DNA of 48,693 nucleotides from an uncultured Desulfohalobiaceae bacterium (GCA_964446205.1 CAYUNZ010000002.1:1-48693); one strand, 5' to 3'. Shown: positions 1 to 48,693, counted from the first letter of the stretch. Numbers and translations: made by a program. The notes: generated by a model from the letters alone, not told the origin.

Positions 1-100
1 TTTTGCAGACTGACGCAGCCAAACGGAAAAAGGGCAGTTTCCGGATGAAAACTAAGGAGTATTGTCTATCTGAAAACATCGAGAAGAAAAGGAGCAACTT

Positions 101-571
101 ATGATCGATGTCAATATCCCCGGGTTCAATCACCTCCAGCTCGAAGACCTGGTCATGGACTATAATGGTACCCTAGCTGTGGATGGCAACCTGGAAAACA
201 ATGTTCGGGAAGAACTGCAGAGAGTATCTAAGGATTTGAGAATACATATTATCACAGCTGATACCTTTGGCAAGGTCCATGCAGGTTTTGAAGATGATCC
301 CTATGTAATAACCGTTCTTCAGCAAGAAGATCAGGCCATTGGTAAGCTAAAATATATCGAGCAGTTGGGGACTGAGCAATGTGTTTGCATGGGAAACGGA
401 CGGAATGATAGATATATGCTTGAACAATCAGCTCTGGGTATTGCGGTCATGCTTGAGGAGGGCACGGCTAGAGAGGCCATCCTCTCGTCTGATCTACTTA
501 TGCCGGGAATCCTGCCAGCCTTACAGCTCTTAACCAATTCCCTCAGGCTGATGGCCACTTTACGTTCTTAG
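101..571 (+). CDS. HAD-superfamily hydrolase (small soluble P-type-ATPase-like, COG4087-type)
   Basis: 156-aa ORF with an AAGGAG RBS at 89-94. Carries HAD-like motifs MDYNGT (motif I variant), ITADT and GNGRND (motif IV). Confidence 0.6.
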   Translation: MIDVNIPGFNHLQLEDLVMDYNGTLAVDGNLENNVREELQRVSKDLRIHIITADTFGKVHAGFEDDPYVITVLQQEDQAIGKLKYIEQLGTEQCVCMGNGRNDRYMLEQSALGIAVMLEEGTAREAILSSDLLMPGILPALQLLTNSLRLMATLRS

Positions 572-690
572 AGGTTTTGGCTGTAAGTCTAAGAGAGAGC
601 ATGCAAAGGATGTAAACCGGTTACCGTTAGAAAGGTTTTTAGCAGGTCTTGGTCCAAGGATGATGTAAGCGAAGTATAAATTTTGCCGCT

Positions 691-1539
691 CTAGAGACAG
701 AGAAAAACTGAATTTCCTTCGGGTTGGTTGATCAATTCGGAAATTACCTGACACTTTACCTTGAAGGCATAGTAGATAGGGCTTTGTTCTTGCAAAAGGG
801 CTTCTAGGTTGCCCTGGCCTTTACTGATGACTACCGGGGTTTGGCTGAATTCTTCCAAAAAATCTGATGAGCAACGCTTAAGTACCGTACCGGCAGTATC
901 GACCCCTGAGGAGATGACCCTACACTTGTCTATCAATTTGACAAAACAGGCGTCTTCCATAGTTGCATCATTGATAATCGGTTTTTCCCGAACTACATAG
1001 ATAACTTGGCAATCAAGCTTTTGAAGTTCTTCTACTAAAAGGGTGTCTAAGGCGATTTCCCCGGCATTGTCACCCAGGATCATAACCTTTTTAAAAGAGG
1101 AAATCTCCTTTAAAAATCGCTCATAAGTAGCCATGTCCAATTGCCGATGTTCGGTCTGGAGCTTATCTTGCCAGTGGAAATCCTTGCCTACGCCACTATC
1201 TATATAATTACCGATAATGGATATTTCCAAGGCGGCCAAAAGGGGGTCTTTGGATTGACTAATAATAGTCCTCAAGGTAGGCAAGAGATTTAAGGCCTTT
1301 ATATTGGATTCATTTTTTTCTTTAGCAAAAGGATCCGGGTTGTCAATGAGTTTACCCAGAATTGTATAAAGGTCGCCCACCAGCAGGGGAGGAGGAAGAG
1401 TCAGATCAGAGTCAGCCAATCTCTTAGACCATGATTGGACAACTTGTCTATGGAGATCTTTATCTTCTGGTTTGGCTAGGCGAGCTGCATAAAGGCCTTG
1501 CCGCAAGAAACAGGGTAGACAGTCTAGCTGTGTTTCCAT
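691..1539 (-). CDS. DUF89/ARMT1-like damage-control phosphatase family protein
   Basis: 282-aa ORF. Has the N-terminal CLPCFLRQ motif, the GDNAGE metal-binding motif and SKGQGNLEAL, all typical of DUF89 proteins. Confidence 0.6.
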   Translation of the reverse strand: METQLDCLPCFLRQGLYAARLAKPEDKDLHRQVVQSWSKRLADSDLTLPPPLLVGDLYTILGKLIDNPDPFAKEKNESNIKALNLLPTLRTIISQSKDPLLAALEISIIGNYIDSGVGKDFHWQDKLQTEHRQLDMATYERFLKEISSFKKVMILGDNAGEIALDTLLVEELQKLDCQVIYVVREKPIINDATMEDACFVKLIDKCRVISSGVDTAGTVLKRCSSDFLEEFSQTPVVISKGQGNLEALLQEQSPIYYAFKVKCQVISELINQPEGNSVFLCL

Positions 1540-1606
1540 AATTTACTACCTTTTTCGTTTAAGTTCAGGGGCAATGATTTTATCCAGGAACACTTATCAA
1601 TTAGTT

Positions 1607-1790
1607 AACATGAAAAGAATGTCGACCGTGAACCGTTGACCCAGTTAAAAAGAGATTTAACCGGGTAAACCGTGGACCGAAGAACTGAGAGTAAAGGGAT
1701 AATTTCTTAATTTCTTCATCTTTCGGTTCACAGTTCACGGTTCTCGGTTCACGTCTTCTTTCACGCTTCGTTATGCCCGCTAGGGCATGG
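1607..1790 (+). repeat. Heptamer-array intergenic repeat, copy A (full length, forward)
   Basis: Left end is AACATGAAAAGAATG followed by GTCGACC GTGAACC GTTGACC (1621-1641). Core is AAAAAGAGATTTAACCGGGTAAACCGTGGACCGAAG. Right array is GGTTCAC AGTTCAC GGTTCTC GGTTCAC (1725-1752). Tail is CTTCTTTCACGCTTCGTTATGCCCGCTAGGGCAT. About 90% identical to copy B over the left half. Confidence 0.85.
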
Positions 1791-1800
1791 TGATTAATAT

Positions 1801-3192
1801 ATGAACAACGAGTCTTTTTACGATGTTATAATTGTTGGCGGCGGTCCGGCCGGTCTATTTGCTGCCTATTATCTGGCCACATATTCAAGCCTAAAGATCC
1901 TTTTAATTGATCAAGGACAGGCTATTGATAAGCGAAGCTGTCCGATATCCAATAATCAGAAATGCCTTCATTGTAAACCATGTCAAATTTTGTCCGGTAT
2001 CGGAGGAGCAGGTCTGTTTTCTGATGGGAAACTCAACTTTATTCAGAAACTGGGTAAGACTGATCTGACGCAATTTTTATCAGCTCAGGCAGCCTTGGAG
2101 CTTATAATAGAAACAGAGGATATCTTTAAATCTTTTGCTATGGACGGGCAGGTATATCCGACAGACTGGCAAAGGGCCAAACTATTTAGGAAAGAGGCCC
2201 GAAGAGAAGGGATTGAGCTCTTATTGATCCGGCAAAAACATTTGGGGAGTGATTGTCTGCCAGGATATATATCTGATTTAGTTTCTTATATCCAAAAAAG
2301 TGTTGTGATCCAGACTGCAGTTGAGATCAAAGATATTGTTGTCCAGGACAATCAGATCCAGGGGGTTGTGGCTGAGGATAACGTTTATAAGGCTCCCCGG
2401 GTCATTCTGGCTCCAGGCCGGGTTGGTGCAAATTGGTTAACCTGTTTGGCTGATCAATACAAGCTTGGCAAAAGGCAGCGTGGTATTGAGGTGGGGATAA
2501 GGGTGGAAGTCCATAATGACATTATGGAAGATTTGACAGATATAATATATGATCCTACGTTTTTTATCCAGACCGGCAAGTATGATGATCAGACCAGAAC
2601 ATTTTGCACCAACAGGGGTGGTTTCGTTTCTTTGGAGAACTATCAGGATTTTGTCTGTGTTAACGGCCATGCCTATCATCAAAGGAAATCGGATAATACC
2701 AATTTTGCTTTCTTGTCCAAGGTTGAGCTTACCGAACCTGTGACTGATAACCAAGCCTATGGGGTCTCAATTGGCAGACTGGCCTCTCTGATCGGCGGGG
2801 GTAAACCCTTATTACAGAGATTCGGTGATCTGAAAAGGGGACGTCGAAGTACATGGCACCGGGTCAACAAGGGCTACCTTGAGCCGACAATGACCAGGGT
2901 TATTTGTGGTGACATTGCCATGGCCTTGCCGGAAAGGATCTTGACCAATATAGTCGAAGGATTGGAAAAGCTAAATCAGGTTATTCCCGGTGTAGCTAAT
3001 GACGAAACCTTGCTCTATGCTCCGGAAATAAAATTCTTTGCTTCTCAAATCGAAACAGACACCTCATTACAGACCTCGATTGGTGGATTATATGTAGCTG
3101 GTGACGGTGCCGGAGTTGCCGGGAATATTGTTTCAGCAGCTGCTACCGGCCTTATACCGGCCAAAGCAATTATTAAAGAACGTGAACCGTGA
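1801..3192 (+). CDS. FAD-dependent oxidoreductase (uncharacterised NAD(FAD)-utilising dehydrogenase, COG2509-like)
   Basis: 463-aa ORF with the N-terminal dinucleotide-binding motif VIIVGGGPAGLFAA and a C-terminal GLYVAGDGAG motif. The last 5 codons and the TGA stop lie inside repeat copy B. Confidence 0.7.
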   Translation: MNNESFYDVIIVGGGPAGLFAAYYLATYSSLKILLIDQGQAIDKRSCPISNNQKCLHCKPCQILSGIGGAGLFSDGKLNFIQKLGKTDLTQFLSAQAALELIIETEDIFKSFAMDGQVYPTDWQRAKLFRKEARREGIELLLIRQKHLGSDCLPGYISDLVSYIQKSVVIQTAVEIKDIVVQDNQIQGVVAEDNVYKAPRVILAPGRVGANWLTCLADQYKLGKRQRGIEVGIRVEVHNDIMEDLTDIIYDPTFFIQTGKYDDQTRTFCTNRGGFVSLENYQDFVCVNGHAYHQRKSDNTNFAFLSKVELTEPVTDNQAYGVSIGRLASLIGGGKPLLQRFGDLKRGRRSTWHRVNKGYLEPTMTRVICGDIAMALPERILTNIVEGLEKLNQVIPGVANDETLLYAPEIKFFASQIETDTSLQTSIGGLYVAGDGAGVAGNIVSAAATGLIPAKAIIKEREP

Positions 3193-3351
3193 ACCGTTGA
3201 CCCAGTTAAATAAAAAGAGATTTAACCGGGTAAACCGTGGACCGAAAAAATAAGAATGAAGGAATCATTTCTTAATTTCTTCATCTTGCGGTTAACGGTC
3301 GACGGTGAACGGTCAACATTTTCATGCTTCGTTGTACTCGGCTAGGGTCAT
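3178..3351 (+). repeat. Heptamer-array intergenic repeat, copy B (full length, forward)
   Basis: Left array GTGAACC GTGAACC GTTGACC (3182-3202), same core as copy A, right array GGTTAAC GGTCGAC GGTGAAC GGTCAAC (3290-3317), tail ATTTTCATGCTTCGTTGTACTCGGCTAGGGTCAT. Confidence 0.85.
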
Positions 3352-3422
3352 TTGGTTGATGTGAAAAAGTGTTCACTAGTAAACAGAAAACGATCAACAT
3401 TTTTTATAAAAGGAGGTTATTG

Positions 3423-3698
3423 ATGGTCAATAGCTTGCATTGCCTCATTTCTGGGAAGGTACAAGGCGTTAACTTTCGATCCTGGACCAAAAGTCAAGCC
3501 GATAATTTGGGACTAAAAGGATGGGTACGAAATCTAGATGACGGCAGGGTTGAAGTCGTTGCTCAAGGCCAAGAAGAGAAATTAGAGACCCTAAAAGGTA
3601 GGTTAGCCCAAGGTTCGGCCTTTAGTCGCGTGGAAGACATACAATGTCAATGGCTGGATTATGAGAAAGAATATACTGGTTTTGAACTCAGATTATAA
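3423..3698 (+). CDS. acyP: Acylphosphatase
   Basis: ATG at 3423 is preceded by an AAGGAGG RBS. Has the hallmark motifs SGKVQGVNFR and GWVRNLDDGRVEV. The ~91-aa size is typical. The ORF-track start at 3369 is probably too far upstream. Confidence 0.85.
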   Translation: MVNSLHCLISGKVQGVNFRSWTKSQADNLGLKGWVRNLDDGRVEVVAQGQEEKLETLKGRLAQGSAFSRVEDIQCQWLDYEKEYTGFELRL

Positions 3699-3707
3699 CA
3701 AATCAAG

Positions 3708-3732
3708 TGCCTGCAAATCTATCTTGCAGGTA
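3708..3732. terminator. Hairpin between convergent acyP and dnaA (possible bidirectional terminator)
   Basis: CCTGCAA (3710-3716) and TTGCAGG (3724-3730) form a perfect 7-bp stem with a 7-nt loop, extendable by 2 bp. The flanking T/A runs are weak. Confidence 0.4.
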
Positions 3733-3738
3733 ATTGAT

Positions 3739-5082
3739 TTATGGTCTTGATTCGACTGCTTCGACAACTCGAGTTAGTTGTCTTCCGGTTTGGCTTTCTT
3801 GAACTATTTCTCTTTCTATATTGGTTATTCCTTTCAAGACGGTCGAATGACGACGATTTAGGTATTGACCTATATTTTTTAGAGATAGATCAGTGTGTTT
3901 TCTAGCCAAATAGAAGGCCGTATTCCTAGCCATGACTAGCTGTTTCTTTCTGGACTTGGACCTCAATTTCTCGAAAGAGATCTCAAAGGTCTTACAGATA
4001 CTCTGAACAATCTGATCTATATCCAGGGTTTCCTGGTTCTGGGTATAGTTTTGCAGGACCTCTTGGGCAAGATCATGAGAAACCTTTTCCTGGAGCATTT
4101 GTGACTTTAAGGCAATATTTTGGATACAACTCTCTATTTGACGGATATCAGAAGTTATTTTTCTGGCTATCAAATCCTCAACATGGGAAGTCAGATTTAG
4201 ATTGTACTGCCTGGCTTTCTTTTGGATGAGTAAAAACCGGAAATCATAATCAGGTTTGTCAATAGGGGCTAAAACCCCGGAACAAAAATACGAGGTCAGT
4301 TTTTGGTCAATTTTGCTCAACTCTTTTGGCAAAAAAGAACTGGAGAAGACAAATTTATTACCTTTGGCCTCAAGGGATTTGATAATTGAAAGTAGTTCCT
4401 CCTGCATTTTTTCTTTGCCCTGAAAAAAATGGATGTCTTCCAATAGTAATAGGTCGATATTGTCTCTATATTGACTTTTGAACTCCTCTACTTTTTTTGA
4501 TTTGATAGCTCTGACTAACTGGTTGGCAAATTGTTCCGAGGATACATACATTACCTTGAGTGGCTCCTGGTTGCAATTTTTGTAGAAGAAATGCCCCATA
4601 GCCTGAAGTAAATGTGTTTTACCAAGACCTGGTCCTGAACAGATAAAGATATGATCTGCTGGAAAGTTCATATTACACATACTTGAACAGGCGGTATATG
4701 CTAGCCTGTTAGAATTCCCAACGACAAAATCCTCAAATGCGTATCTCCAGGTCTTTTTCTTGAATTGATAGCTATAGTCTATAGGTAAAGACAGTCTTTG
4801 TTCCTGCTTTGCCTTGGGTGTATTCTCCTGGGAGTTATTTTGAGAATGGCCATTTCCAGATATGTACAAAGTGGGTACATACCCAAGTTGATGGGCTGCT
4901 TCTTCTTTTATTGTTTCAGAGAGCCTCTCTCTTACCCATGAGGCCACAAACTCGCTTGGGGCTTTAAGGTTCAAGGAATTATCCTGCACTTCTCCTTGCA
5001 GGGGTTTTATCCATACCTTAAAGATTCCAGATTTTAGAGATTTTTCCAGATTTGATTGAATTTTTTCCCATGTTCCTTTCAT
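3739..5082 (-). CDS. dnaA: Chromosomal replication initiator protein DnaA
   Basis: 447 aa. Has the Walker A motif GPGLGKTHL, the AAA+ core, and a C-terminal DnaA-box-binding region (MARNTAFYLARKHTDLSLKNIGQYLNRRHSTVLKG). Confidence 0.95.
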   Translation of the reverse strand: MKGTWEKIQSNLEKSLKSGIFKVWIKPLQGEVQDNSLNLKAPSEFVASWVRERLSETIKEEAAHQLGYVPTLYISGNGHSQNNSQENTPKAKQEQRLSLPIDYSYQFKKKTWRYAFEDFVVGNSNRLAYTACSSMCNMNFPADHIFICSGPGLGKTHLLQAMGHFFYKNCNQEPLKVMYVSSEQFANQLVRAIKSKKVEEFKSQYRDNIDLLLLEDIHFFQGKEKMQEELLSIIKSLEAKGNKFVFSSSFLPKELSKIDQKLTSYFCSGVLAPIDKPDYDFRFLLIQKKARQYNLNLTSHVEDLIARKITSDIRQIESCIQNIALKSQMLQEKVSHDLAQEVLQNYTQNQETLDIDQIVQSICKTFEISFEKLRSKSRKKQLVMARNTAFYLARKHTDLSLKNIGQYLNRRHSTVLKGITNIEREIVQESQTGRQLTRVVEAVESRP

Positions 5083-5159
5083 ATGGAATGGACAATATAC
5101 CCTTTACTTTTTTGGGACAATAAATGATTTAGGCCAAAATAGATAAGAAATTAGCAAGG

Positions 5160-5560
5160 TAGTTTTATTATATAACTATTTATAATAATTACACTTCAAT
5201 GTTTTAAAGCCAGTATCACTGGTTTATTTTAATTGTAGACATATCCTTAAGGCATACTGTTTTAGACCTATTATCAACAGATTTATTCACATAAAAACTA
5301 TAATTTTCCACAGGAAAAAGTTTAATTTGCGCTATATTTCTAAAAATTTTTATATATTTTGAAATTATTGATATATATCAAAGTATTAACTTATACATTT
5401 TTTTCAATTTTATGACATGTTATCGACAACTATATTAAGGTATTTACTTTTAACAAGTATTTTAGTTATTTATATGGCAATCACCTTTGTTTTAGGAGAC
5501 AACTGTACAAAGTCAAAAATCAAGAATCTAGATTGAGCACTTCTAACCTGATTTACTGAT
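5160..5560. other. Candidate oriC: DnaA-box cluster plus AT-rich unwinding region upstream of dnaA
   Basis: TTATTCACA (5283-5291) matches TTATNCACA exactly. One-mismatch boxes are TTATCAACA (5271-5279), TTTTCCACA (5304-5312) and TTATCGACA (5420-5428). The stretch 5330-5410 is extremely AT-rich. Confidence 0.5.
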
Positions 5561-5854
5561 ATTTTTGGTTGTTAATAGTTAGTTTCTATCCAAAAAACTG
5601 TTTTTTTTTCCGTTTGACTGGGTCAATGTGGGTAAAAACCCCTTTAATCTCTTGTTCTAACTCTTTGATTTTAAATCTCATTTCTTTTATGGTTTCTATT
5701 CTTTGTGTATACAATAATAACTCTTTGCGGTTGCATCTTGTATGTTTGATGGGGTCAAGGAGTAAGGTCAAAAAATTTGAGGTCAAACTTTGACATTACT
5801 ATGGGTTTTACATTATAGACATGGTCAAAACATTGAGTGATTATACCTCAAGGT

Positions 5855-6027
5855 TGGCATGAAAAAAGCTGTGAGCATGAAAAGGGTGTGAATCGAGAAC
5901 CGTGAAATGTGAACCGTAAGACGAAGATGTTAAGAAATAAATCCTTGATTCTTATTTCTTCGGTCAACGGTTTACCCGGTTAAATCTCTTTTTATTGAAC
6001 TGGGTCAACGGTTCACGGTCAACGTTT
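5855..6027 (-). repeat. Heptamer-array intergenic repeat, copy C (full length, inverted orientation)
   Basis: The reverse complement aligns with copies A and B, including the core AAAAAGAGATTTAACCGGGTAAACCGTTGACCGAAG. Arrays are GTGAATC GAGAACC GTGAAAT GTGAACC (5888-5915) and GGTCAAC GGTTCAC GGTCAAC (6003-6023). The GCATGAAAA end motif is duplicated at 5857-5886. Confidence 0.8.
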
Positions 6028-6041
6028 TTTTAGTACAAACA

Positions 6042-6077
6042 CATATGTTCTAGTAGGTACAACGAAGGATGAAAGAA
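6042..6077 (-). repeat. Solo tail module of the heptamer-array repeat
   Basis: The reverse complement TTCTTTCATCCTTCGTTGTACCTACTAGAACATATG matches the tails of copies A and B (TTTCATGCTTCGTTGTACTCGGCTAGGGTCAT). No adjacent array belongs to it. Confidence 0.6.
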
Positions 6078-6156
6078 TATAATATGCATTAGCTAAGCTA
6101 AATCTTCTATTCCAGCATTTCATGCAGTTTATTTCATGTCTTACAGATTTCTTAAA

Positions 6157-6262
6157 CCCTGACCGTTCACCGTAGTCTGTTGAGCTTTTATTGAAGGAAT
6201 TTCTTCAGTCTTTTTTCATACGGTTCACTGTCCACGGATAACGGTTCACGTTCTTTATACTG
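6157..6262 (+). repeat. Heptamer-array intergenic repeat, copy D (short, diverged, forward)
   Basis: Left units CCTGACC GTTCACC GTAGTCT (6158-6178). Right array GGTTCAC TGTCCAC GGATAAC GGTTCAC (6222-6249), followed by GTTCTTTATAC. Lacks the conserved A/B/C core. Confidence 0.65.
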
Positions 6263-6310
6263 GCTGTTTATTGTTATTTAAAAAAACAATTAAAAAAGGA
6301 GTGAACGAGA

Positions 6311-8074
6311 ATGGCATACGATGTATCGAAGATGAAAGATTGGCAAATTTCCGAGGCTGCAGAAGAGAATATGCCTTCGCCTGAAGCCTGGCGGGATAAG
6401 CTTGGACTGGAAAAAGAAGAGATGAATATCATGGGCAGGCTGTCCAAGCTCGATTTTCTGAATATCATGAACAGGCTTCAGGATAGACCAGATGGCAAGT
6501 ATATTGAAGTTACAGCCATTACCCCGACTCCTCTTGGAGAAGGCAAGAGCACAACATCGGTTGGTCTGATGGAAGGTCTGGGCAAGAGAGGTAAAAATGT
6601 CGGGGGAGCACTCAGACAACCATCTGGTGGACCGACCATGAATATTAAAGGTTCGGCAGCCGGGGGCGGTAATGCCATCCTCATACCCATGACTGAATTT
6701 TCATTGGGTCTAACTGGCGACATAAACGACATTATGAATGCCCATAATATGGCTATGGTTGCTCTAACATCCCGTATGCAGCATGAACGTAACTATAGTC
6801 CAGAAAAGATAGAAAAACTATCCGGAATTCCAGCCTTAAATATCGATCCCACAAAGGTGGAAATGAACTGGATTATCGATTATTGTGCTCAGGCTCTGCG
6901 CAAAATAGTCATCGGTTTGGGTGGACGAATGAATGGGTACACAATGGAATCAGGTTTTAATATTGCCGTTAGTTCCGAATGCATGGCCATTCTTTCAATA
7001 GCCACCAATTTGGCTGATTTGAGAAAACGTCTAAATGAAATAACTGTTGGCTTCAACAAAGACGGAAAACCTGTAACCACAGGGGACTTGCAAGTCGGCG
7101 GGGCCATGACTGCCTGGATGCGGAATACTATCAACCCGACCTTGATGAGTACGGCCGAATATCAACCGTGCATGGTCCATGCCGGGCCTTTTGCCAATAT
7201 TGCTGTTGGCCAGTCTTCAATTATTGCTGACCGGATTGGTCTGAAGATGTTTGATTATCATGTAACTGAAAGTGGATTTGCTGCTGACATTGGCTTTGAA
7301 AAATTCTGGAACGTCAAATGTCGAAATAGTGGACTCAAGCCCCATGTTTCTGTCTTGACGGCGACAATCAGAGCCCTGAAGATGCATGGCGGAGGACCGA
7401 AAGTAACTCCTGGTCTGGCCTTACCAGAAGAATATACAAAGGAAAATCTGGAGCTTCTGGACAAAGGCATGGAAAATATGATTCATTTGATTAAAGTGAT
7501 CCGAAAATCTGGAATGAACCCTGTTGTCTGTGTTAATTGTTTCCCAACAGATACAGAAGCAGAAATAAACTTGGTCAAAAAACGGGCTGAAGAGGCCGGT
7601 GCTCGATGTGCCAAGTCGACTCACTTTATGGATGGTGGTGACGGAGCCCTGGAACTGGCAGACGCTGTCATTGATGCTTGTGAAGAGGAGTCAAAATTTG
7701 ACTATCTCTATTCCCTTGACAAGAAGTTAAGGGAACGAGTCGATGTCATTGCTCGAGAAGTATATGGTGCTGATGGAGTAGATTGGGCTCCGGAGGCAGA
7801 GAAGAAGGCCAAAATGTTGGAAGATGATCCTAAATACAATGACTATGCAACTATGATGGTCAAGACTCACCTCAGCCTGTCTCATGAGCCCACCTGGAAG
7901 GGAGTGCCCAAGGGATGGAGACTACCTGTTAGGGATGTTTTGATTTATTCCGGTTCCAAGTTCCTATGCCCCATGGCTGGTACTATTCCTTTAATGCCGG
8001 GGACAAGCTCCAATCCTGCCTATACAAAAGTAGATGTAGATACTGAAACCGGAAAGGTTACTGGATTGTTCTAG
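6311..8074 (+). CDS. fhs: Formate-tetrahydrofolate ligase
   Basis: 587 aa with an AAGGAG RBS. Has the diagnostic signature [12 protein letters not shown] and reads as Fhs over its full length. Confidence 0.95.
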
Positions 8075-8103
8075 TTCTATCCTTGTGTAACTGTACCCTC
8101 CCA

Positions 8104-8136
8104 AGGCCTGCATGTTTTTCATGCAGGCCTTTTTTT
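8104..8136 (+). terminator. Rho-independent terminator of fhs
   Basis: AGGCCTGCAT (8104-8113) pairs with ATGCAGGCCT (8121-8130) in a perfect 10-bp GC-rich stem with a 7-nt loop, followed by TTTTTT (8131-8136). Confidence 0.85.
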
Positions 8137-8166
8137 AAAAATTGCCTATTTATTATAATTTTTGCC

Positions 8167-8195
8167 TTGACATGTAGTCATTATATAACTAGAAT
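8167..8195 (+). promoter_or_regulatory. Candidate sigma70 promoter P1 upstream of the bam-like operon
   Basis: TTGACA (8167-8172), a 17-nt spacer, then TAGAAT (8190-8195). Confidence 0.45.
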
Positions 8196-8285
8196 ATGAC
8201 TAATTTTTAATTTGTTGACTGAAATCATTACTTTTTCAGTGAACTATCAATAGTTTTTATTTTATGTGGACAGAAAAAATATATA

Positions 8286-8314
8286 TTGACATATAGCTAC
8301 ATTGTAACTATCAT
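8286..8314 (+). promoter_or_regulatory. Candidate sigma70 promoter P2 upstream of the bam-like operon
   Basis: TTGACA (8286-8291), a 17-nt spacer, then TATCAT (8309-8314). The -10 element overlaps the palindrome AACTAT-cat-ATAGTT (8306-8320). Confidence 0.45.
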
Positions 8315-8441
8315 ATAGTTGTAGATAATGTTTGTAGTTAGTGTTGAGGCAAGGATTTGATCTTTTCGAGATAAGCAGGCTGACTATACTTGCCTATATG
8401 GTATAACTATATAGAGTACAAATAGATAAAAGGGGTAAAAA

Positions 8442-10400
8442 ATGAGGTACGCAGAAACAGGGTATAATTTAGAGGTAGATCTAACCCGAGGGAATATTGA
8501 GAAGGTACAGACTGATCCCAAGTTAACCAAACTTTATCTGGGAGGCCAGGGGACCGCAGCTAAGATACTTTGGGATAGGGTCCCTCCAGAGGTTGACCCG
8601 CTTTCTCCTGAGAATCTACTGATATTTAGTGCCGGGATTTTGGATGGCACGCCTGTTCCCGGTGCCAATCGCACCAATGTTAGTACTATTTCTCCCCAGA
8701 ATAATCTGTATAAAGATTCCTTGTTTGGAGGATTTTTTGGTCCGGAATTGAAACATGCTGGATACGACAAAATAGTTCTTAAAGGTAGGGCCTCTAACTT
8801 GGTTTATTTGTGGATAAACAATGACAAAGTGGAGATACGTGATGCTAGTCATCTACAGGGAAAAGGGGCCGGAGAGACTGCAGATATAATCAAAGAAGAG
8901 CTGGATGATCTAGATATTCAGGTAGCGGCAATTGGCCTGGCCGGAGAAAATAGGGTTGCCATGGCCTCGATTGAACACTCTAATGCCAGCTCCTCTCGCG
9001 GAGTTGGCGTGGTTATGGGTGATAAGCGTTTAAAGGCCATTGCTGTTCGAGGGACAAAAGATCTCAATATAGCCAAACCGGCTGAACTCTTTGAGAAAAG
9101 TCTAGACATGTTTCAATATATTTATGACCACCCGGAATATTGTGGGGATTTTATGGCCCACGAGGATGACGAAGAGTGGCACGTTGACAATTTCGCCTGG
9201 GGCAATGCCAGGGAGCGAAGAAAGGGTTTTTGGAATAAAGAACGGGAAGAGAGATGGAAGGCCCTCTCTGAAAGTATCAGATATAGATGGAACGGTTGCT
9301 ATAACTGCCCAAGGGATTGCCATCAAGCCTTACAGTATCCAGGACATCATACTATCTTCCAAAAATGCTATAGTAAGCTAACTTATGCTATGGCTGCCTA
9401 TGAGGAACTGGATTTCAATTATAAGATGATCAGCCGGACCCAGCAGTATGGACTGGATGGATACTCAACACCTCAGGTTTTAGCTTTTGCAGTTGAGTTA
9501 TACGAAGCTGGTATCTTAACAGATGAAGATCTGCCTGATTTCCCATCTGACAGCGCTGGGAGATTTTTTTATTTATTGGAGAAGATAGTTCATAGGGATG
9601 GTTTTGTCGGTGACGCCTTGGCTGAGGGAGTCTATCATGCAGCTCGTAAGATTGGCCGAGGGGCTGAGGAGTATGATCACAATACAATGAAAAAGAATGA
9701 GCAGGTACCGGTCAAGCTGGGCCGGGTTGCCTATCATTATTTCCTGATGTACGCCACTGGAGAAAAGATGAATATTACACAAATAGAAGGTTCCTTCCCC
9801 CAGATACCAATTCCGGATAAAGAAGCGAGGGAAAAATTTGTCCAAGGCTGGGATGCAGCTCCTGATTATTTTAAGAATTTGTATTTGGAATGGGAACCAC
9901 GTACTCAATTATCGGTTGATGGGGCAGTCAGGGTAGTTGATTGGAATGAGCTCATGCACTATGTCGATGACTCAGTTGGTACTTGTGCCTTTTTGTCCTC
10001 TTTTAGAGGTCAGTTTGGCGGGCGGCCTCCCTATCACATTCATAACTTACCGGTTTTTATCTCTCAGGCTACAGGGATGGATATCGATGCAGATCAGTTA
10101 TGGGAAATCGCAGCTAGAAATCGGAATTTGGTCAGGGCGATCAATGTCAGAAGGGGGATGAGAAGAGAAGATGAGAGACCTCCTGAAGATCATTGGAAGA
10201 AAAGAGAACCGGAGATGGAACAAAAATTACTTGATGAGTATTATAAATTTAAGGGCTGGACCAATGATGGTATCCCTACCAAAGGTAGATTGGACGAGCT
10301 TGATTTGGATTATGTCAGCCAAGAGCTTATTGACAGAGGTATCATAACCGGAAATGAGGAATATCTATCACAAAGTTCTTCAACAGAAGAAACGGCATAA
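8442..10400 (+). CDS. bamB: AOR-family tungstopterin oxidoreductase, BamB-like (catalytic subunit of class II benzoyl-CoA reductase)
   Basis: 652 aa. The N-terminal domain is of aldehyde:ferredoxin oxidoreductase type, and the [4Fe-4S] motif is CYNCPRDC. It is the first gene of a BamC/D/E/F-like series. Assignment to BamB rather than a generic AOR rests on that context. Confidence 0.7.
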   Translation: MRYAETGYNLEVDLTRGNIEKVQTDPKLTKLYLGGQGTAAKILWDRVPPEVDPLSPENLLIFSAGILDGTPVPGANRTNVSTISPQNNLYKDSLFGGFFGPELKHAGYDKIVLKGRASNLVYLWINNDKVEIRDASHLQGKGAGETADIIKEELDDLDIQVAAIGLAGENRVAMASIEHSNASSSRGVGVVMGDKRLKAIAVRGTKDLNIAKPAELFEKSLDMFQYIYDHPEYCGDFMAHEDDEEWHVDNFAWGNARERRKGFWNKEREERWKALSESIRYRWNGCYNCPRDCHQALQYPGHHTIFQKCYSKLTYAMAAYEELDFNYKMISRTQQYGLDGYSTPQVLAFAVELYEAGILTDEDLPDFPSDSAGRFFYLLEKIVHRDGFVGDALAEGVYHAARKIGRGAEEYDHNTMKKNEQVPVKLGRVAYHYFLMYATGEKMNITQIEGSFPQIPIPDKEAREKFVQGWDAAPDYFKNLYLEWEPRTQLSVDGAVRVVDWNELMHYVDDSVGTCAFLSSFRGQFGGRPPYHIHNLPVFISQATGMDIDADQLWEIAARNRNLVRAINVRRGMRREDERPPEDHWKKREPEMEQKLLDEYYKFKGWTNDGIPTKGRLDELDLDYVSQELIDRGIITGNEEYLSQSSSTEETA

Positions 10401-12178: not shown

Positions 12179-15100
12179 ATGGAGAAAGTGGAACAAGAAC
12201 AAGTATCCAAAGAAAGAATTCAACAACTATGCAATCGACATGGAGAGAGTAGTTTTGGAGATGTCATGGTTGTTGGTGGTGGGATAAGCGGCATCCAAGC
12301 CTCTTTAGATCTAGCCGGTGCTGGTTTTAAGGTTTATCTTATTGAGAAGTCCCCTGCTATCGGCGGTCATATGGCCCAGCTGGATAAGACCTATCCAACC
12401 AATGACTGCTCGATGTGAATACTCTCGCCAAAACTGGTCGAGGTCGACCGGCATCCAAATATAGAGGTTTTAACCTATACAGAAGTCGATAAAGTAGAAG
12501 GACAGGCAGGGGATTTTAATGTATCTCTGACCAGAAAGCCTAGATACATTAAAGAGGACAAATGCACTGGTTGTGGTACTTGTGCAGAATACTGCCCGGT
12601 TAACATCCCTGATCCATTTAATCAGGAGATATCTCAGAACAAAGCAGTCCATGTCTACTTTGCTCAGGCAATACCCCTTATAGCCTATATTGATGAAAAC
12701 TGTCTCTACCTTAAAGAAAATAAATGCCGTATCTGCGAAGCTGTTTGTGATAATAAGGCCATTGACCTTAATCAAAAAGAAGAGAAGGTAGAAGTAAATG
12801 TCGGAGCCATCCTTTTGTCTCTGGGCTATGATGTCTTTGATCCCAAAGTCAGGGACGAGTATGGCTATGGCAAGCTCCAGAACGTGGTAACCAGCATGGA
12901 CTTTGAACGTCTGTTGTGTGCAACTGGCCCATATGAAGGAGAGATACTTCGTCCTTCTGATAAAGACTATCCTCACAAGATAGCCTGGCTTCAATGTATT
13001 GGTTCCAGACGCGTTACTCCTGGCGACAATAGTTATTGTTCAGCTGTATGTTGTACATATACCCAAAAACAAGTCATGTTAACCAAAGAGCATGACACCG
13101 AGGCAGAGTGTACTGTATTCCATAACGATATTCGTTCATATGGCAAAGACTTCGAGCTATATTACCAAAAAACAGATCAACTTTCCGGGACCAGGTTTAT
13201 AAGGAGTTATGCCTCAATAGTCGGAGAGAGTCCAGAGAGTAAGAATATAGTTATAAAATATTCTACTACTGATGAAGGTGTGAAAGAGGAAGAGTTTGAT
13301 CTGGTTGTTTTATCGGTTGGATTGAATCCTCCGGCAAATCATCATGAATTGGCCAATAAGTTTGGGATTGAATTAAATGAACACGGATTTTGTAAAACTG
13401 ATTCTTCCAATCTTATGAAGACCAGCAGACCTGGTATTTTTGTCAGTGGAGCCTTTCAGGGTCCCATGGATATTCCTGAGTCGGTCTTTACCGCTTGCGG
13501 AGCTGGTTCACAATTGGGAGAGTTCTTGAACAAGCGGCGATGGAGACTGACCAAAGACAGGATATATCCCCCGGAAAGGGATGTATCACAAGAGGCACCC
13601 CGGATAGGCGTCTTTGTTTGTCATTGCGGGGCTAATATCGGTCGGGTAGTCGATGTTCCCTCAGTTGTTGACTATTGTTTGACTTTACCCAATGTTGTCT
13701 ATGCCCAGGAACAGCTATTTTCATGCGCTACCAATTCTGCCAATGAAATCACTGATATGACTAAAGAAAAAGGTCTCAACCGGGTGATCATAGCTGCTTG
13801 CTCGCCAAGGACCCTGGAACCATTATTTAGGGATACCCTGCAAGAGGCAGGTATTAATCAATATTATCTGGATATGGCCAATATAAGGGAACATAACTCC
13901 TGGGTCCATGCCAAAGAACCTGAAGAGGCCACAGAAAAGGCTAAGGACCTGATTCGGATGTCTGCGGCACGAGCCGCCCATTTGGAGCCTTTACAGGATA
14001 TCGATTTACCGGTGACCAAGACGGCTTTGGTTGTCGGTGGGGGGATAGCCGGGATGACCTGTGCTCTGTCTATTGCCAACCAAGGACATGAGGTCCACTT
14101 GGTTGAAAAGGATTCAGACCTTGGTGGAATGGCCAGGAGAATCCATTACACTCTGGAAGGGATGGATGTGCAGGCCTATTTACATGATCTCATTCGAAAT
14201 GTTTATAAAAATCCTTTAATACATGTCTATCATAATGCTACTCTGACAGAGGCTACCGGTTATATTGGCAATTTCACAACCAAGGTCCAATCTGAAGGCA
14301 GGGTTCAAGAGATTGAACATGGAGCAACTATACTATCTATCGGGGCTGATGAATATCAACCCTCAGAATACCTCTATGGACAAGACGACAGGGTAATGAC
14401 CCATGTTGAGCTGGAAGAGAGGATTGCTAAGGGAGATGAAGATCTGAGCAATGCTGAAAGTCTGGTCATGATTCAGTGTGTAGGTTGCCGTAATGAAGAC
14501 AGAAATTATTGTTCGCGGGTATGCTGTAGTCATGCTATAAAGAACGCCTTAATGTTAAAAGATAAGAAACCGGAAATGGATATCTACATCCTGTATCGGG
14601 ATATGAGGACCTATGGCTTAAAAGAGGATTATTACCGTGAGGCAGCTGATAAAGATGTCAAGTTTATTCGGTGGGATCCAGAGGATAAACCGGAGATAGA
14701 GGCCACTAAAGAAGGGGGCAAGGATATTCTGCGTGTCACTGTATCTGATCCTATTTTGGGTGAAAGACTGGCTATAGATGCTGATTATCTCTCATTGGCC
14801 GCTGCTGTTGTTCCTCCGGAAGATAACAGTGAAATTGCTCAACTGTTCAAAGTGTCTTTGGGACCGGATCAATTTTTTAAAGAAGCCCATGTCAAATTGA
14901 GACCTGTTGAGTTCAGTGCAGACGGGGTTTTTCTCTGTGGAACGGCTCACTACCCCAAACACATTCCGGAAACGATAAATCAGGCTTATGGAGCTGCCGG
15001 TAGGGCCTTAACCCTTCTCTCTCATGAGATAGTCACAGTTTCCGGTGCTGTATGTGAGGTGGATGAGAACATGTGTATTGGCTGTGAGGCCTGTATGTCT

Positions 15101-15325
15101 GCCTGTACCTACGGGGCTATAGAAATGAAGGATACAAAACAAGGCAAAAAAGCTGTAGTTAATCCTGTCCTCTGTAAAGGTGATGGCCTCTGCAATGCCA
15201 AATGTCCAACAGGTGCAATCACCTTAAAGCACTTTACTGATCAGGAGATCTTGAGTCAGATTGATGTGGCTATACCAGAACAAGAGGCTGTCCAAGAGTA
15301 TGATGCGGCGGTTGGTGATGTCTAG
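12179..15325 (+). CDS. bamE: HdrA-like FAD/Fe-S flavoprotein with selenocysteine (in-frame UGA at 12416-12418), BamE-like
   Basis: ORFs 12179-12418 and 12815-15325 are in the same frame. I translated 12419-12814 and found no stop. The UGA sits in the motif [15 protein letters not shown], where HdrA homologues carry Cys. Also has two GxGxxG FAD motifs ([16 protein letters not shown]) and several ferredoxin motifs. Total 1048 codons. Confidence 0.8.
12434..12451 (+). promoter_or_regulatory. Candidate SECIS hairpin for the bamE-like UGA
   Basis: CUGGUC (12434-12439) pairs with GACCGG (12446-12451) in a 6-bp stem that includes one G-U pair. The apical loop is GAGGUC and starts 22 nt after the UGA. 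Confidence 0.35.
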
Positions 15326-15375
15326 AAATATAAAAAACATCGAGTCGAAATCCGCAATAAAGGAGGTGAGAACAA

Positions 15376-16227
15376 ATGAGCTCAGGGTTTATGTTTAAAC
15401 CTAGGATTTTAGGTTTTGTCTGCCATTGGTGAGGATATGGCGCTGCTGATTTGGCTGGAGTTTCCAGACTACAATATGCTACTGATGTAAGATTAATTCG
15501 TGTCATGTGCTCTGGTAGAATCGACCTGGATTTTGTCCTCAGGTCCTTCTCTAATGGGCTAGATGGGGTGATTATTTGTGGTTGTCACCTAAATGAATGC
15601 AATTATATTACCCATGGAAATTACGATGCCCTAAATATGGTCCTATTATGTAAAAAGATTTTGGAACATAAAGGCTTAAATCCGGAAAGGTTGAGAATTG
15701 AATTTATGTCAGCCGGAGAAGGTAACCGTTTTGCCGAAGTTATGAATGATTTCGGTAAAAAGGTGGAAGAGCTAGGTCCTTTGGGTCAAGGCGAGGGGCA
15801 GGAACAAAGTGAATTAAAGTCAGAAATAGAAGAGGTTAGAAAGCTGGTTCCTTATATCAAGATGGTGGAGAGGGACAAATTAGGGTCACGTATACAGAAT
15901 AAGGAAGAATATGAAGGGTTGTTTTCTAATGAAGAAGTAGAAAGTTTACTTACTGAAGTGCCCTCATATTATATTGATCCGGAAAAGTGTCAGGCTTGTA
16001 TGATTTGTCTTAGGAGATGTCCAGTGGAGGCGATTATTGGCGGCAAGAATCAAATCCATGTTATTGATCAGGATAAATGTATTAAATGCGGCACCTGTTT
16101 TGAGGCTTGTCCACCAAAATTTGGTGCAGTCAGAAAGATTACTGACGAGCCTGTTCCGCCTCCTGTCCCTGAAGAAGAGAGAACCATAGTTAGAAAGAAA
16201 AAAGAAAAATCTAAATCAGCTGGTTAA
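15376..16227 (+). CDS. bamF: MvhD-like/ferredoxin fusion protein with selenocysteine (in-frame UGA at 15430-15432), BamF-like
   Basis: ATG at 15376 lies behind an AGGAGGTG RBS (15361-15368). It reads MSSGFMFKPRILGFVCHW-U-GYGAADLAGVSRLQY, in frame with the track ORF at 15451. The UGA replaces the Cys of the conserved MvhD motif (C-x-W-C-x-Y-x-G-A-D-x-A-G). The C-terminus has two ferredoxin motifs (CQACMICLRRCP, CIKCGTCFEACP). Confidence 0.8.
15453..15469 (+). promoter_or_regulatory. Candidate SECIS hairpin for the bamF-like UGA
   Basis: GGCUGG (15453-15458) pairs with CCAGAC (15464-15469), with one internal mismatch. The apical loop is AGUUU and starts 27 nt after the UGA. Confidence 0.3.
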
Positions 16228-16256
16228 GAAACCAATATAATACGGAGGTAATCAAA

Positions 16257-17039: not shown

Positions 17040-17105
17040 GTAAATTTAAAATTATCTAATATTATAGATTGGACAAAAACCAGATTCAGAAAGGGAAAAA
17101 ATACT

Positions 17106-18065: not shown

Positions 18066-18108
18066 AACAGTTTTTTCAGATCTTAATTCAATCGCTGACG
18101 AGGTGGCT

Positions 18109-28673: not shown

Positions 28674-28741
28674 CTTATTCTTATTTCTTTGGTCAACGGT
28701 CAACGGTTAACGGTCAACATTCTTTTCATGTTTACCAAAGC
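28674..28741 (+). repeat. Heptamer-array repeat, copy E (right half only, forward)
   Basis: CTTATTCTTATTTCTTT, then GGTCAAC GGTCAAC GGTTAAC GGTCAAC (28691-28718), then ATTCTTTTCATGTTTACC. Its reverse complement matches the left terminus of copy A. Confidence 0.75.
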
Positions 28742-38060: not shown

Positions 38061-40958
38061 ATGGTTAACCTGAAAGACATTAAGATGAGGCCAAAGCTAA
38101 TTTTATTGTTCTTACTGATTGGGCTCATACCATTAGCCATTACCGGCTGGTGGTCATCCAGATTGGCAGGTGATTCGCTTATGGATAGCGCCTATAATCA
38201 GCTAAAATCGATGCGAGATGTGAAAAAAAATCAGATCAGCTCTTTTTTTGAAGAGCGGAAAGGGGACACTGATGTCCTTGTAGATACTGTCAATCAAATC
38301 CAGGCTGAGTCCTTTCAAAAGCTGCAAAGTGTTCAACAGCTGAAAAAGAGTCAGATAAAACAATTCTTCAAAAAATTGCACAATGACATCCAAGTCTTGG
38401 CTCAAAGTGAGGATGTAAAAAGAGCTTATTCTGAGCTAAAGCAGTATCACGATGACTTGGGGTTTGGTGCCCAAAGTTCTTTTGATGTAGATACCCCCAG
38501 ATACGAGAGGATCTGGCAGAAATACAGTGATGACCTAGGTAAATATGTGGAGAAGTTTGGTTACTATGATGTCTTTATTATCTGTAAACCGCATGGCCAT
38601 GTCATGTATACCCATTCCCAAGAAGACGATCTGGGGACAAATCTTGGCTATGGACCATACAGGGAGGAAGGACTGGCCAGACTTTGGGAAAAGGTTGTTC
38701 GACAGAAATCGTTTGTCATTGAAGATTATTCTGCTTATAGCCCCAGCGGTGGAAAGCAAGAGGCGTTTGTCGGTGGGCCGATCAAAAATAATGCCGGGAA
38801 AATGGTTGCTGTGGTTGCCCTTCAGATATCTAGTCAGTCTATCAATGATATTGTCCAGCAAAGACAGGGTTTGGGTAAGACAGGGGAGACCTATCTGGCA
38901 ACTGAGCAAAACGGTCGGATAGAGTTTAGGAGCAATCTACAGACTATGGGCGATGGTAATTTTGTTATTGGCAAGGATGTTACGGATATTGCTCCGGCTT
39001 ATCTTGAAGAAACCTTGTCTGGCAAACAGGTTTTGGATGTCTATACCGATTCAGCCGGAAATCCAGTCATGGTCACAGGGAGTATGTTCAATGTTGGCAG
39101 TGGGATTAAATGGGCCATGATTACCAAACAAAATTTAGAGGAGGCCTTGACCTTTACAGAGAAAAAGGGCCAGGAGGACTACTTTACCAAATATATCAAA
39201 TCTTATGGCTACTATGATCTGTTTCTTATCAATAAAAAGGGTTATGTCTTTTACACTGTTGGTAAAGAAGCCGATTACCATACCAACATGCTCGAAGGTA
39301 AATACTCTGATTCCAATCTGGGCAAACTGACCAGAAAGGTACTGCGGACCAAGAGCTATGCCATGGCTGATTTTGCTTCCTATGCCCCAAGTGGAGGTAA
39401 ACCTGCCTCATTTGTTGCCAGGCCGCTTATACATAACAATAAAGTGGAAATGGTGGTTGCCCTGCAGCTCAGCCTACAGGATATCAATAACATTATGCAG
39501 GAACGGACCGGTATGGGCGAGAGCGGGGAGACATATCTGGTCGGACCTGACAAGCTGATGCGTTCGGATTCCTTCCTGGCTACGCAGAGTCACTCGGTAG
39601 AGGCCTCCTTTGCCGGAACTGTTCAGCAAAACGGGGTCGACACTGTAGCCTCCAGACAAGCCTTGAATGGTAAGACAGATGCTCAGATTATAGACGACTA
39701 TAATGGGAATCCGGTCCTATCGGCTTATACTCCGGTCAATGTCGGTAAAAATCTCAAGTGGGCCTTGATTTCGGAAATAAACGAAGCAGAGGTAAATCAA
39801 CCAATTGATGATTTGATTATGTCTATAGTCATTGTGGCTATTGTCATTATAATTGCTGTTATTCTGGTAGCCTTGTTTGTGGCCAATATGGTCGCCAAGC
39901 CCTTAAATGAGGGGGTCTCATTTGCCGGAACCGTAGCCAAAGGGGATTTAACAGCCATTCTGGAAGTTGATCAAAAGGACGAGATCGGTATGCTGGCTGA
40001 TGCCCTGAGGGATATGGTTAAGAACTTGCAGAAGGTGGTCAAGGATGTCCAGTCAGCTTCGGACAACGTGGCCTCCGGATCAGAGGAGATGAGTTCCTCT
40101 TCAGAAGAATTGTCTCAGGGAGCTACCGAGCAGGCCTCTAATATCGAAGAGGTATCCTCGAGTATGGAACAGATGGCCTCGAACATCCAGCAAAACACAG
40201 ACAACGCCCAGGAGACGGAGAAGATCTCCAATAAGGCTGCCCAGGATGCTGAGGCAGGCGGCAAGTCAGTCAATGATACTGTTCAGGCTATGAAAGACAT
40301 TGCCGACAAGATCTCTATTATTGAGGAGATCGCCAGACAGACCAATCTTTTGGCCCTAAATGCAGCCATTGAGGCGGCTAGAGCAGGCGAGGCCGGAAAG
40401 GGTTTTGCCGTAGTAGCGGCCGAGGTCCGCAAGCTGGCTGAAAGAAGCGGTGGAGCGGCCAAAGAGATCCGGGAGCTGTCCTCCTCCAGTGTAGAGGTGG
40501 CTGAACAGGCAGGTCAGATGCTGAACAAAATGGTCCCAGATATCCAAAAGACAGCCGAGTTGGTTCAAGAAATAGCTGCAGCCAGCCGGGAACAGAATAG
40601 CGGGGCTGAGCAGGTAAACAAAGCGGTCCAGCAGTTGGATCAGGTCATACAGCAAAATGCCACAGCCTCTGAAGAGCTGTCATCGACAGCAGAGGAGCTG
40701 TCTTCTCAGGCCCAGCAACTCCAGGATACCATGTCCTTTTTCAAGATAGATGAAGAAAAGTCTTTTCGGGGTAAATCAGTAGAGAAAATCAAAAAGGAAG
40801 GTGGTGGTCAGGCTGTTTCCAAGGACAATAAGAAGGCCTTGGGTCAGACTCAGAACAAGCAGGAGAAAGCAGAAAATAAGGAACAAGGCAAACAGAAACG
40901 TTTGTCCCTGGATATGAATTCAGAGGATCAGGAAGACCAGGAATTTGAGAGATATTAA
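38061..40958 (+). CDS. Methyl-accepting chemotaxis protein with a large periplasmic double Cache-like sensor, HAMP and signalling domain
   Basis: 965 aa. TM1 is at the N-terminus and TM2 is [20 protein letters not shown]. Has a canonical tip [37 protein letters not shown], a long K/E/Q-rich C-terminal linker, and ends in EFERY. Confidence 0.9.
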
Positions 40959-41075
40959 CATAAAAGAATGTTTACCGTTGTCCGTTTACCGTTTACCGAA
41001 GAATAAAATTAATTGAACTTCTTCGTTTTTTTGTTTTTTGGTTGACGGTCGACGGTAAACGGTGAACATTTTAAA
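40957..41075 (+). repeat. Heptamer-array repeat, copy F (short, forward) between mcp and cheW
   Basis: AACATAAAAGAATG, then GTTTACC GTTGTCC GTTTACC GTTTACC (40970-40997). An inner hairpin plus T-run follows, then GGTTGAC GGTCGAC GGTAAAC GGTGAAC (41040-41067) and ATTTTAAAG. Confidence 0.75.
40997..41039 (+). terminator. Possible intrinsic terminator/attenuator inside repeat copy F
   Basis: CGAAGAA (40997-41003) pairs with TTCTTCG (41019-41025) in a 7-bp stem with a 15-nt loop, followed by TTTTTTTGTTTTTT (41026-41039). The stem is AU-rich and the loop is large, so this is weak. Confidence 0.3.
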
Positions 41076-41117
41076 GAGTTAGAGAAGATATTCATATTAA
41101 CCAAGAAAGGAGCGCGT

Positions 41118-43308: not shown

Positions 43309-43423
43309 TAAGCATAAACTGGTGCTGACGTTCACATCTCATGTCCATTTTCATGCTGTATTGTGCCCGTCTGGTTGATAAACAACTAAACTCTTATAAT
43401 ATATAAGCAAGCCGGAGTGAATC

Positions 43424-48610: not shown

Positions 48611-48638
48611 AATAACCGAAATATCCAGAGACGGCACT

Positions 48639-48693
48639 ACGAAGCATGAAAAGCTCCCGATAACCTTCTAAAATTATTCTTATAAATTTTCAT
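48639..48693 (-). repeat. Heptamer-array repeat, copy G (tail end, inverted, truncated by the window edge)
   Basis: The reverse complement reads ...AGAAGGTTATCGGGAGCTTTTCATGCTTCGTAGTGCC. This carries the conserved tail TTTTCATGCTTCGT and abuts the start of the minus-strand SDR gene. Confidence 0.55.

Follow-up and report, generated by a model that had tools for sequence, protein, structure and literature searches.

Dispersed repeats with opposed heptamer arrays in a Desulfohalobiaceae genome: a probable lineage-specific MITE-like family flanked by TTAA

The dispersed repeats described here are probably, with a chance of roughly two in three, copies of a lineage-specific, non-autonomous mobile element of MITE-like type residing in a Desulfohalobiaceae genome, and are best read as a new TTAA-targeting MITE-like family with simple-repeat arms, that is, as a type of selfish DNA already known. 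Several traits of MITEs were found in the family, namely a size within the ~100-400 bp typical of them, without coding capacity, terminal inverted repeats and multiple scattered copies whose insertion is polymorphic between relatives. With about one copy per 7 kb, the family probably represents a major part of the intergenic DNA in this lineage, and it would provide a clear case of tandem heptamer arrays travelling within a larger mobile unit, with a concrete route for seeding arrays across a genome.

The window, i.e., the whole stretch of DNA that was analysed (48,693 nt), is an entire contig of a Desulfohalobiaceae MAG. Six copies (A to F), a truncated copy (G), a solo tail and two relics were located in it (Table 1), and all the copies claimed by the initial annotation were present, at or within a few bases of the positions given there. 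Repeat search of the window revealed direct families (D1-D4) and inverted pairs (I1-I8) connecting the copies, with B and C being 86% complementary over 132 nt (3175-3306 vs 5899-6030) and A and B 83% identical over 113 nt (1646-1758 vs 3211-3323). Period-7 arrays were detected by TRF in copies A (1724-1753), B (3181-3197 and 3289-3317), E (28691-28718) and F (40970-40998). The heptamer motif ACCGTNNACCGTNNACC, admitting up to two mismatches, was matched 25 times versus 0.19 expected, a number reached by none of 100 shuffles, and the tail TTTCATGCTTCGTTGTGCC, with up to three mismatches, was matched five times versus 0 expected. Finally, an nhmmer profile trained on metagenome copies only, with the window excluded, returned 13 arm matches in the window, which correspond exactly to copies A to F, the best match being copy E (E = 8e-18). 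The presence of a real repeat family in the window is thus confirmed.

As previously proposed, the copies (115-190 bp) are without any ORF and none of the ORFs in the window carries a transposase domain. The neighbouring genes are of the housekeeping type, and include dnaA, fhs, aldehyde:ferredoxin oxidoreductase and Hdr/ETF-type redox genes, a branched-chain amino-acid ABC transporter, a gene of the benzoate-CoA-ligase family and a chemotaxis operon. The description of the family as unclassified also holds, as no Rfam match was found at gathering thresholds in the whole window on either strand and a literature search for the repeat strings gave nothing relevant. Downstream of fhs and of the aldehyde:ferredoxin oxidoreductase gene, the region 12815-20217 groups genes for Hdr-like (CCG domain), FlpD/MvhD-like, NAD(P)-binding Fe-S and ETF alpha/beta proteins, resembling a Flx/Hdr-type electron-bifurcation module, and is without repeat copies.

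Table 1. Position of the repeat copies, of their parts and of related hairpins (window coordinates unless a contig is named)
Feature	Position	Strand	Description
Copy A	1605..1797	+	Complete long form; element proper 1609-1793
Copy A, left TTAA	1605-1608		
Copy A, left terminus	1609-1622		CATGAAAAGAATGT
Copy A, left array	1621-1641		GTCGACC GTGAACC GTTGACC
Copy A, core insertion	1642-1664		23-nt hairpin, followed by two more units and the loop
Copy A, right array	1724-1753		
Copy A, inverted terminus and tail	1754-1793		Tail hairpin ATGCCC-GCTA-GGGCAT
Copy A, right TTAA	1794-1797		
Copy B	3173..3359	+	Long form with core; acylphosphatase start 64 nt downstream of the tail end
Copy B, core insertion	3203-3229		
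Copy C	5846..6040	-	Long form with core, inverted; in the fhs leader, between the conserved sigma70-like promoter (~5795-5830) and fhs
Copy C, core insertion	~5985-6002	-	
Solo tail module	6042..6077	-	TTTCATCCTTCGTTGTACC...; adjoins the left terminus of C
Copy D	6157..6262	+	Old degenerate short form; fhs starts 48 nt downstream
Copy E	28674..28741	-	Left half only: terminus CATGAAAAGAATGT, four heptamers, CAAAGAAATAAGAAT; divergent spacer
Copy F	40955..41100	+	Short form, 4 + 4 heptamers; chemotaxis operon, between MCP gene and cheW
Copy F, left TTAA	40955-40958		Contains the MCP stop codon
Copy F, element proper	40959-41096		
Copy F, right TTAA	41097-41100		
Copy G	48633..48693	-	Cut at the contig end; tail module 48633-48651 just upstream of the start of an epimerase-family gene, preceded by a degenerate arm
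Relic	600..640	+	Degenerate left terminus (CATGCAAAGGATGT) and two heptamers; convergent spacer; below nhmmer threshold
Relic	43320..43372	+	Right-arm remnant and tail (TTTCATGCTGTATTGTGCC); between response-regulator gene and cheD
Gemmatimonadota hairpin	L019 31-142		
Gemmatimonadota hairpin	L020 3947-4080		
Gemmatimonadota hairpin	L020 5400-5506		
Gemmatimonadota hairpin	L040 2623-2708		
Gemmatimonadota hairpin	L040 6924-7028		

The unit has a recurrent order, consisting of the left terminus CATGAAAAGAATGT, three to eight units NNACCGT, a loop, two to four units ACGGTNN and an inverted terminus, with or without a hairpin tail of ~35 nt; in the aligned metagenome copies (see below) the left terminus is preceded by (G)TTAA and the loop is bordered by CGAAGAAATAAGAAT after the (NNACCGT)3-8 array and by TTCTTCATCTTGC before the (ACGGTNN)2-4 array. 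A logo of 410 heptamers reads N-N-A-C-(C/G)-G-T, both arms being in the single frame NN-AC(C/G)GT and differing only in the central base and in the free dinucleotide. The mutually inverted termini that had suggested a MITE were observed, with CATGAAAAGAATGT pairing with ACATTCTTTTCATG at the opposite end, and the presence/absence between sister species, the TTAA flanks and the lineage-specific burst described below add to that comparison. What appears as the right terminus is indeed the left terminus inverted, followed by the small hairpin tail. Two types of ending were recognized, either a direct stop (..CTTTCAGG|TTAA) or CTTCGTTGT followed by a small hairpin, ATGRGG and GTTAAC. The flanks of the tail hairpin are conserved and its stem is variable (GTGCC..GGCAT, GTGCCC..GGGCAT or GTCCAGCCC..GGGCTGGAT), and the tail often closes with a second GTTAACATGAAAAGA in direct orientation, which a simple two-TIR model accounts for only via nested or adjacent insertion. 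The tail-then-terminus order formed by the solo tail and the left terminus of C recurs in metagenome copies. About one quarter of the copies are left halves without right arm, as copy E, which speaks against the MITE-like reading.

Of the four-part architecture originally proposed, the termini and the heptamer arrays stand, but the core does not, since it is restricted to A, B and C and missing from all 41 other loci. It marks a local subfamily and lies outside the architecture of the family. The three copies that carry it are confined to 4.5 kb, and the best reading is therefore that A and C were copied locally from an older B. The core consists of a hairpin insertion of 23-27 nt (CAGTTAAA..AGAGATTTAACCGG) with two TTAA, placed inside the left heptamer array; a longer version is present in the relic of B of a sister species (contig L167, see below). 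It is reminiscent of the small dispersed repeats that Elhai, in 2008, reportedly described inside cyanobacterial heptamer arrays.

Metagenomes were scanned with a pattern comprising the terminus and two heptamers (AAAAGAATGTNNACCGTNNACCGT), leading to the identification of 41 stretches, all from one habitat and from four related JGI samples which also hold the dnaA contigs of the window organism. After subtraction of the overlaps, about 34 further loci remained; many copies thus exist outside the window, which bears out the initial annotation. In 228 kb, 115 arrays of at least three units were counted. The contigs of the lineage break at copies, ending inside them, and the family thus fragments assemblies. 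Five contigs (L001-L005) are 99.9-100% identical to the window. A phage source was searched for in 2.9 million viral contigs, in which the terminus pattern was absent.

The number of heptamers at the same locus differs between samples, being 5 in L143 vs 8 in L151 and 5 in L147 vs 4 in L149, and, for the right arm, 4 in L130 vs 2 in L141. Moreover, in L163, compared with L162, a 19-nt piece of the terminus is tandemly triplicated, and at the locus shared by L143 and L151 the tail hairpins are of different type (GTCCAGCCC..GGGCTGGAT vs GTGCCCGCC..GGGCAT). The differences in heptamer number point to slippage-prone simple repeats, and the L143/L151 tails together with the L163 triplication suggest recombination or conversion between copies. 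Hypervariable heptamer number and insertion polymorphism together offer natural strain markers. A 74-nt indel between L127 and L132, considered as a strain-level empty site, turned out to be unrelated to the repeat family.

Syntenic contigs of two sister species were retrieved through the gene of a FAD-dependent oxidoreductase, and designated L167 (88% protein identity) and L169 (83%). Differences in presence/absence between relatives, which the initial annotation had put forward as a check, were found for four copies. Copies A and C are absent at the orthologous sites of both relatives, the spacer holding A being 261 nt long in the window vs 111 and 85 nt, element-free, in the relatives; copies B and D correspond to decayed orthologous relics in L167 and are absent in L169. 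The window holds 12 arrays in 48.7 kb, compared with one in 21 kb of one relative and none in 21 kb of the other. The FAD-dependent oxidoreductase gene merges at its 3' end with the left terminus of B, which provides the last 5-6 codons of the gene and the stop (window 3170-3192), so that the predicted C-terminus reads ..IIKEREP* in the window and ..ILKECGP* in L167, vs ..ILSGS* at the empty site of L169; annotation of such regions is prone to gene-end artefacts. The copies are thus inserted DNA: their presence varies between sister species, they differ in age and they can be joined to gene ends. The expansion of the family is a lineage-specific burst, in the window lineage only.

The same comparison revealed two conserved features near dnaA. 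The AT-rich spacer upstream of this gene (5083-5830, 34% GC), in which DnaA-box-like motifs TTTTCCACA are kept in L167 and L169, is probably oriC, and the sigma70-like promoter of fhs (TTGACAT..N17..TATAGA, ~5795-5830) is common to the window, L167 and L169. By their position, the copies in the fhs leader, beside dnaA and the probable oriC, and inside the chemotaxis operon may perturb expression of these genes.

As to the ends, 30 of 55 left termini have a TTAA before them, the background frequency being 0.5% per position, and for 26 of 37 tails a TTAA is located downstream, at +16 to +26. TTAA occurs on both sides of A, of F and of an element in contig L173. Mostly a G stands before the left TTAA, and a C often comes after the right one, which suggests a GTTAAC-like target. 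Excision of F together with one TTAA gives TAA-CCAAGAAAGGAGCGCGT-ATG, and removal of either F or the L173/L174 element with one TTAA restores a normal operon spacer of 20-25 nt with a Shine-Dalgarno sequence. The L173/L174 element is a different hairpin, which in this sister species (CheW 84% identical) occupies the same TTAA, corresponding to the stop codon of the MCP gene. From these flanks we infer a 4-bp TTAA duplication, although the TTAA could instead belong to the ends of the element; strains of 97% identity already carry B and C, and among the contigs compared no filled/empty pair of high identity was found. At least seven loci have the flanking TAA as stop codon of the upstream gene, as would be expected if insertions into a TTAA holding the stop survived because the duplication regenerates it.

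The L173/L174 hairpin belongs to a second family (L173 4220-4395, the same in L174 3520-3695), with heptamers GCGRTGA and GTTAAGA, inverted termini GAAGAAGCGATGAG and TTAA on both sides; it is also found at the end of L151 and is absent from the window. Integron attC sites were considered too, for the GTTAAC-like ends located right after stop codons, and were discarded: (G)TTAAC-ATG and GG-GTTAAC do not fit RYYYAAC/GTTRRRY, the neighbours are housekeeping genes or operons, and there is no integrase.

The element is a long imperfect palindrome made of terminal inverted repeats, opposed subterminal heptamer arrays and a variable loop. According to the mechanism we favour, a transposase encoded elsewhere in the genome would insert it at (G)TTAA(C) with a 4-bp duplication. 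The enzyme would recognize the termini and perhaps the reiterated heptamers, as with the subterminal repeats of other transposons. Copies A and C could have derived from the old copy B by local hopping, and the arrays would afterwards lengthen and shorten through replication slippage. Effects on the host would be secondary, consisting of hairpins in 5' leaders and operons and of an occasional new stop codon or C-terminus. No transposase with matching ends turned up between paired termini in the metagenome loci (217 kb; about 280 kb of the lineage were searched overall). The ORFs lying between distant inverted termini, examined as a possible autonomous copy, code for PlsX, YceD, a histidine kinase, an NtrC-type regulator and an SLT-domain protein.

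The arms had been proposed to form a long hairpin, and prediction supports this for the complete copies, with z scores vs shuffles from -6.6 to -8.9 as RNA and from -4.1 to -4.7 as DNA (copy A: -70.4/-72.1 kcal/mol and z -6.6/-7.2 as RNA, z -4.7 as DNA; copy F: z -4.1 as DNA); shuffles fold as well as the old copy D. Since the free dinucleotides often mismatch, 5-bp ACCGT/ACGGT helices alternate with 2x2 loops along the stem.

Such stable RNA hairpins might themselves be what is selected, as an mRNA stabiliser, processing site or attenuator like REP/BIME and Correia elements. Transcription is not in question for F and the 43320 relic, inside the chemotaxis operon, nor for C and D, in the fhs leader, all of which must be transcribed; window tails point to a start codon 25-60 nt away, and F folds 20 kcal/mol better on its sense strand (-53.4 vs -33.5), via G-U pairs. 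Across 37 elements, however, the two strands are favoured 17 vs 19 times with a mean difference of 0.4 kcal/mol, which dismisses a strand selection based on F, and tails lie 22 in the same vs 10 in the opposite orientation relative to neighbouring genes. Terminator-like T-tracts are missing, though the genome has canonical terminators: a consensus scan of 1-8500 found no promoter or terminator in copies A to D, with terminators elsewhere at 3708-3732 and 8103-8131. A sigma-54-like reading of the tail was rejected, as its spacing is GG-N9-GC where N10 is required. Pairing is maintained in the tail hairpin (77.6% of cells), though with weak covariation by manual pair counting, and RNAalifold gave no consensus on the tails, owing to indels. 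Together with the orientation counts given next, these results give no sign of a selected RNA or regulatory role; any RNA effect would anyway come second to the way the element spreads, and we consider a primarily RNA-level element very unlikely. The arrays could otherwise be a host cis-element, that is, reiterated sites (ACSGT or GTNNAC quasi-palindromes) for a nucleoid-associated or regulatory protein, kept to organise or regulate the neighbours. This would agree with heptamers in which five of seven positions are nearly invariant and two are free, with the quasi-palindromic nature of each unit, and with copies that lie beside dnaA and the probable oriC and concentrate upstream of genes and within divergent spacers (in the window, three of four divergent, vs one relic in five convergent). 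Against it, orthologous sites are empty or decayed in the sister species, the flanking genes have no functional relation to one another, the number and sequence of the units drift freely from strain to strain and no candidate binding protein was found; moreover the orientation bias of the termini is weak (28 vs 17) and C is inverted in the fhs leader, so that the rule of an element always pointing to the downstream gene does not hold. A host-maintained function is in our opinion quite unlikely.

Two other readings concern how the repeats arose. REP/BIME sequences and REPINs are imperfect palindromes, abundant outside genes, whose spread is probably due to a domesticated enzyme present in single copy and which have side effects on mRNA stability (PMC3116915), and a REP/REPIN-like or IS200/IS605-type palindrome would be moved as a single-strand hairpin by a Y1 enzyme (RAYT/TnpA), beside a fixed tetranucleotide and without target duplication. 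The long imperfect palindrome, the small subterminal tail hairpin with conserved flanks and variable stem, the fixed short TTAA/GTTAAC abutting the element ends, the high copy number, the extragenic location and the folding without strand bias, as for a DNA-level palindrome, are all compatible with such an origin. It is nevertheless unlikely: REPs are palindromes of 20-40 nt, single or in inverted pairs, that are associated with a RAYT gene and lack the TIR and TSD organisation, the present elements are far larger and have true terminal inverted repeats, TTAA on both sides and the sensible single-TTAA spacer after excision of F fit a duplication better than one-sided targeting, and the ~280 kb of the lineage sampled contain no Y1 (RAYT) gene. 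In the remaining reading, the arrays would be ordinary heptanucleotide simple-sequence repeats, immobile and arisen in place through slippage. Heptanucleotide arrays are the most over-represented class of long SSRs in many bacteria (Mrazek 2007, as cited in PMC4679880 and PMC4692102), and intergenic tandem 7-nt repeats of unexplained function are represented by cyanobacterial STRR, Xanthomonas (GGGANTN)n / GGGAATC and Beggiatoaceae TAACTGA (PMC4692102, PMC4679880), which likewise have some positions fixed and others free, vary in number between relatives and sometimes form inverted pairs. Tandem 7-nt units, longer than chance and differing in number between strains, are indeed present here, and both GGTNNAC and control heptamers commonly form arrays in many phyla as well as in viral contigs. 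Unlike the free-standing arrays described for the STRR type, however, those of the window (unit NNAC(C/G)GT) are framed by conserved termini and tails, with which they move as a single unit. Slippage cannot make the non-repetitive termini, loop motifs and tails shared at ~40 unlinked loci, which already contradicts this reading, and the core specific to A, B and C would stay unexplained; an immobile origin is extremely improbable.

A MITE-like element thus remains our preferred reading, and systems of comparable plan exist. BOX elements of Streptococcus pneumoniae are dispersed and modular, with fixed end modules and a variable count of an internal tandem module of ~45 nt; the modular plan is alike, but the repeated module is not of 7 nt, two inverted arrays are missing and there is no sequence relation. 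In eukaryotes, Ac/Ds transposons carry arrays of short hexamer motifs reiterated subterminally, and elements of the piggyBac type insert specifically at TTAA. The opposed reiterated motifs inside both ends and the TTAA insertion recall these systems in the way they work only, with no homology or shared enzyme implied. Bacterial MITEs, such as Correia/NEMIS of Neisseria, ERIC/IRU of enterobacteria and RUP of pneumococcus, share with the window family the 100-200-bp non-coding size, the terminal inverted repeats, the high copy number, the extragenic or intra-operonic location, the long hairpins, the presence/absence between relatives, the short AT-rich flanking repeats and the lack of an own transposase (in part from PMC3116915). 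The window family differs from Correia, ERIC and RUP in having arms made of tandem 7-bp arrays of variable number between strains, and shows no sequence similarity to them; the flanking repeat is TTAA, instead of TA as in Correia.

To place the heptamers in a wider context, (GGTNNAC)x4 was searched in 185,579 species genomes, retrieving at least 120 loci in many phyla (36-72% GC among the matches listed), none of which, among those listed, had the terminus or the core of the window family. Half of 128 GGTNNAC arrays in other phyla, among the matches listed, have an inverted partner within 120 nt. In viral contigs, three composition-matched quasi-palindromic control heptamers gave 69, at least 120 and at least 120 stretches, vs 55 for GGTNNAC, and the ACSGT core was thus rejected as a special cross-phylum signal. 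The heptamer arrays of other phyla are a generic heptanucleotide-repeat phenomenon, whose over-representation was already noted (Mrazek 2007, as cited in PMC4679880 and PMC4692102), and are no homologues of the window family. One could speculate that heptamer-armed hairpins are a general vehicle for bacterial heptanucleotide arrays, these being subterminal repeats of mobile palindromes seeded by transposition and then subjected to slippage. The second family of L173/L174, with different heptamers but the same architecture and TTAA site, hints at this, as do hairpins with shared loop motifs in Gemmatimonadota and the inverted partners of half of the 128 GGTNNAC arrays; on the other side, control heptamers are as common or commoner, and arrays in other phyla are without conserved termini or TTAA flanks. 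We regard this generalisation as tentative and, on balance, rather unlikely.

The Gemmatimonadota hairpins, five in one MAG (Table 1), have the form (ACGGTGG)n-loop-(CCACCGT)n, and the motifs GATACTGAAG and GCGCGCCGTG recur in the loops of two of the five, which points to a possible separate dispersed family. Arrays of more than 25 GGTTTAC/GGTTGCC units, with an inverted (GTCAACC)n partner, were also observed in a MAG contig (L106, 4887-5113 and 5822-5975).
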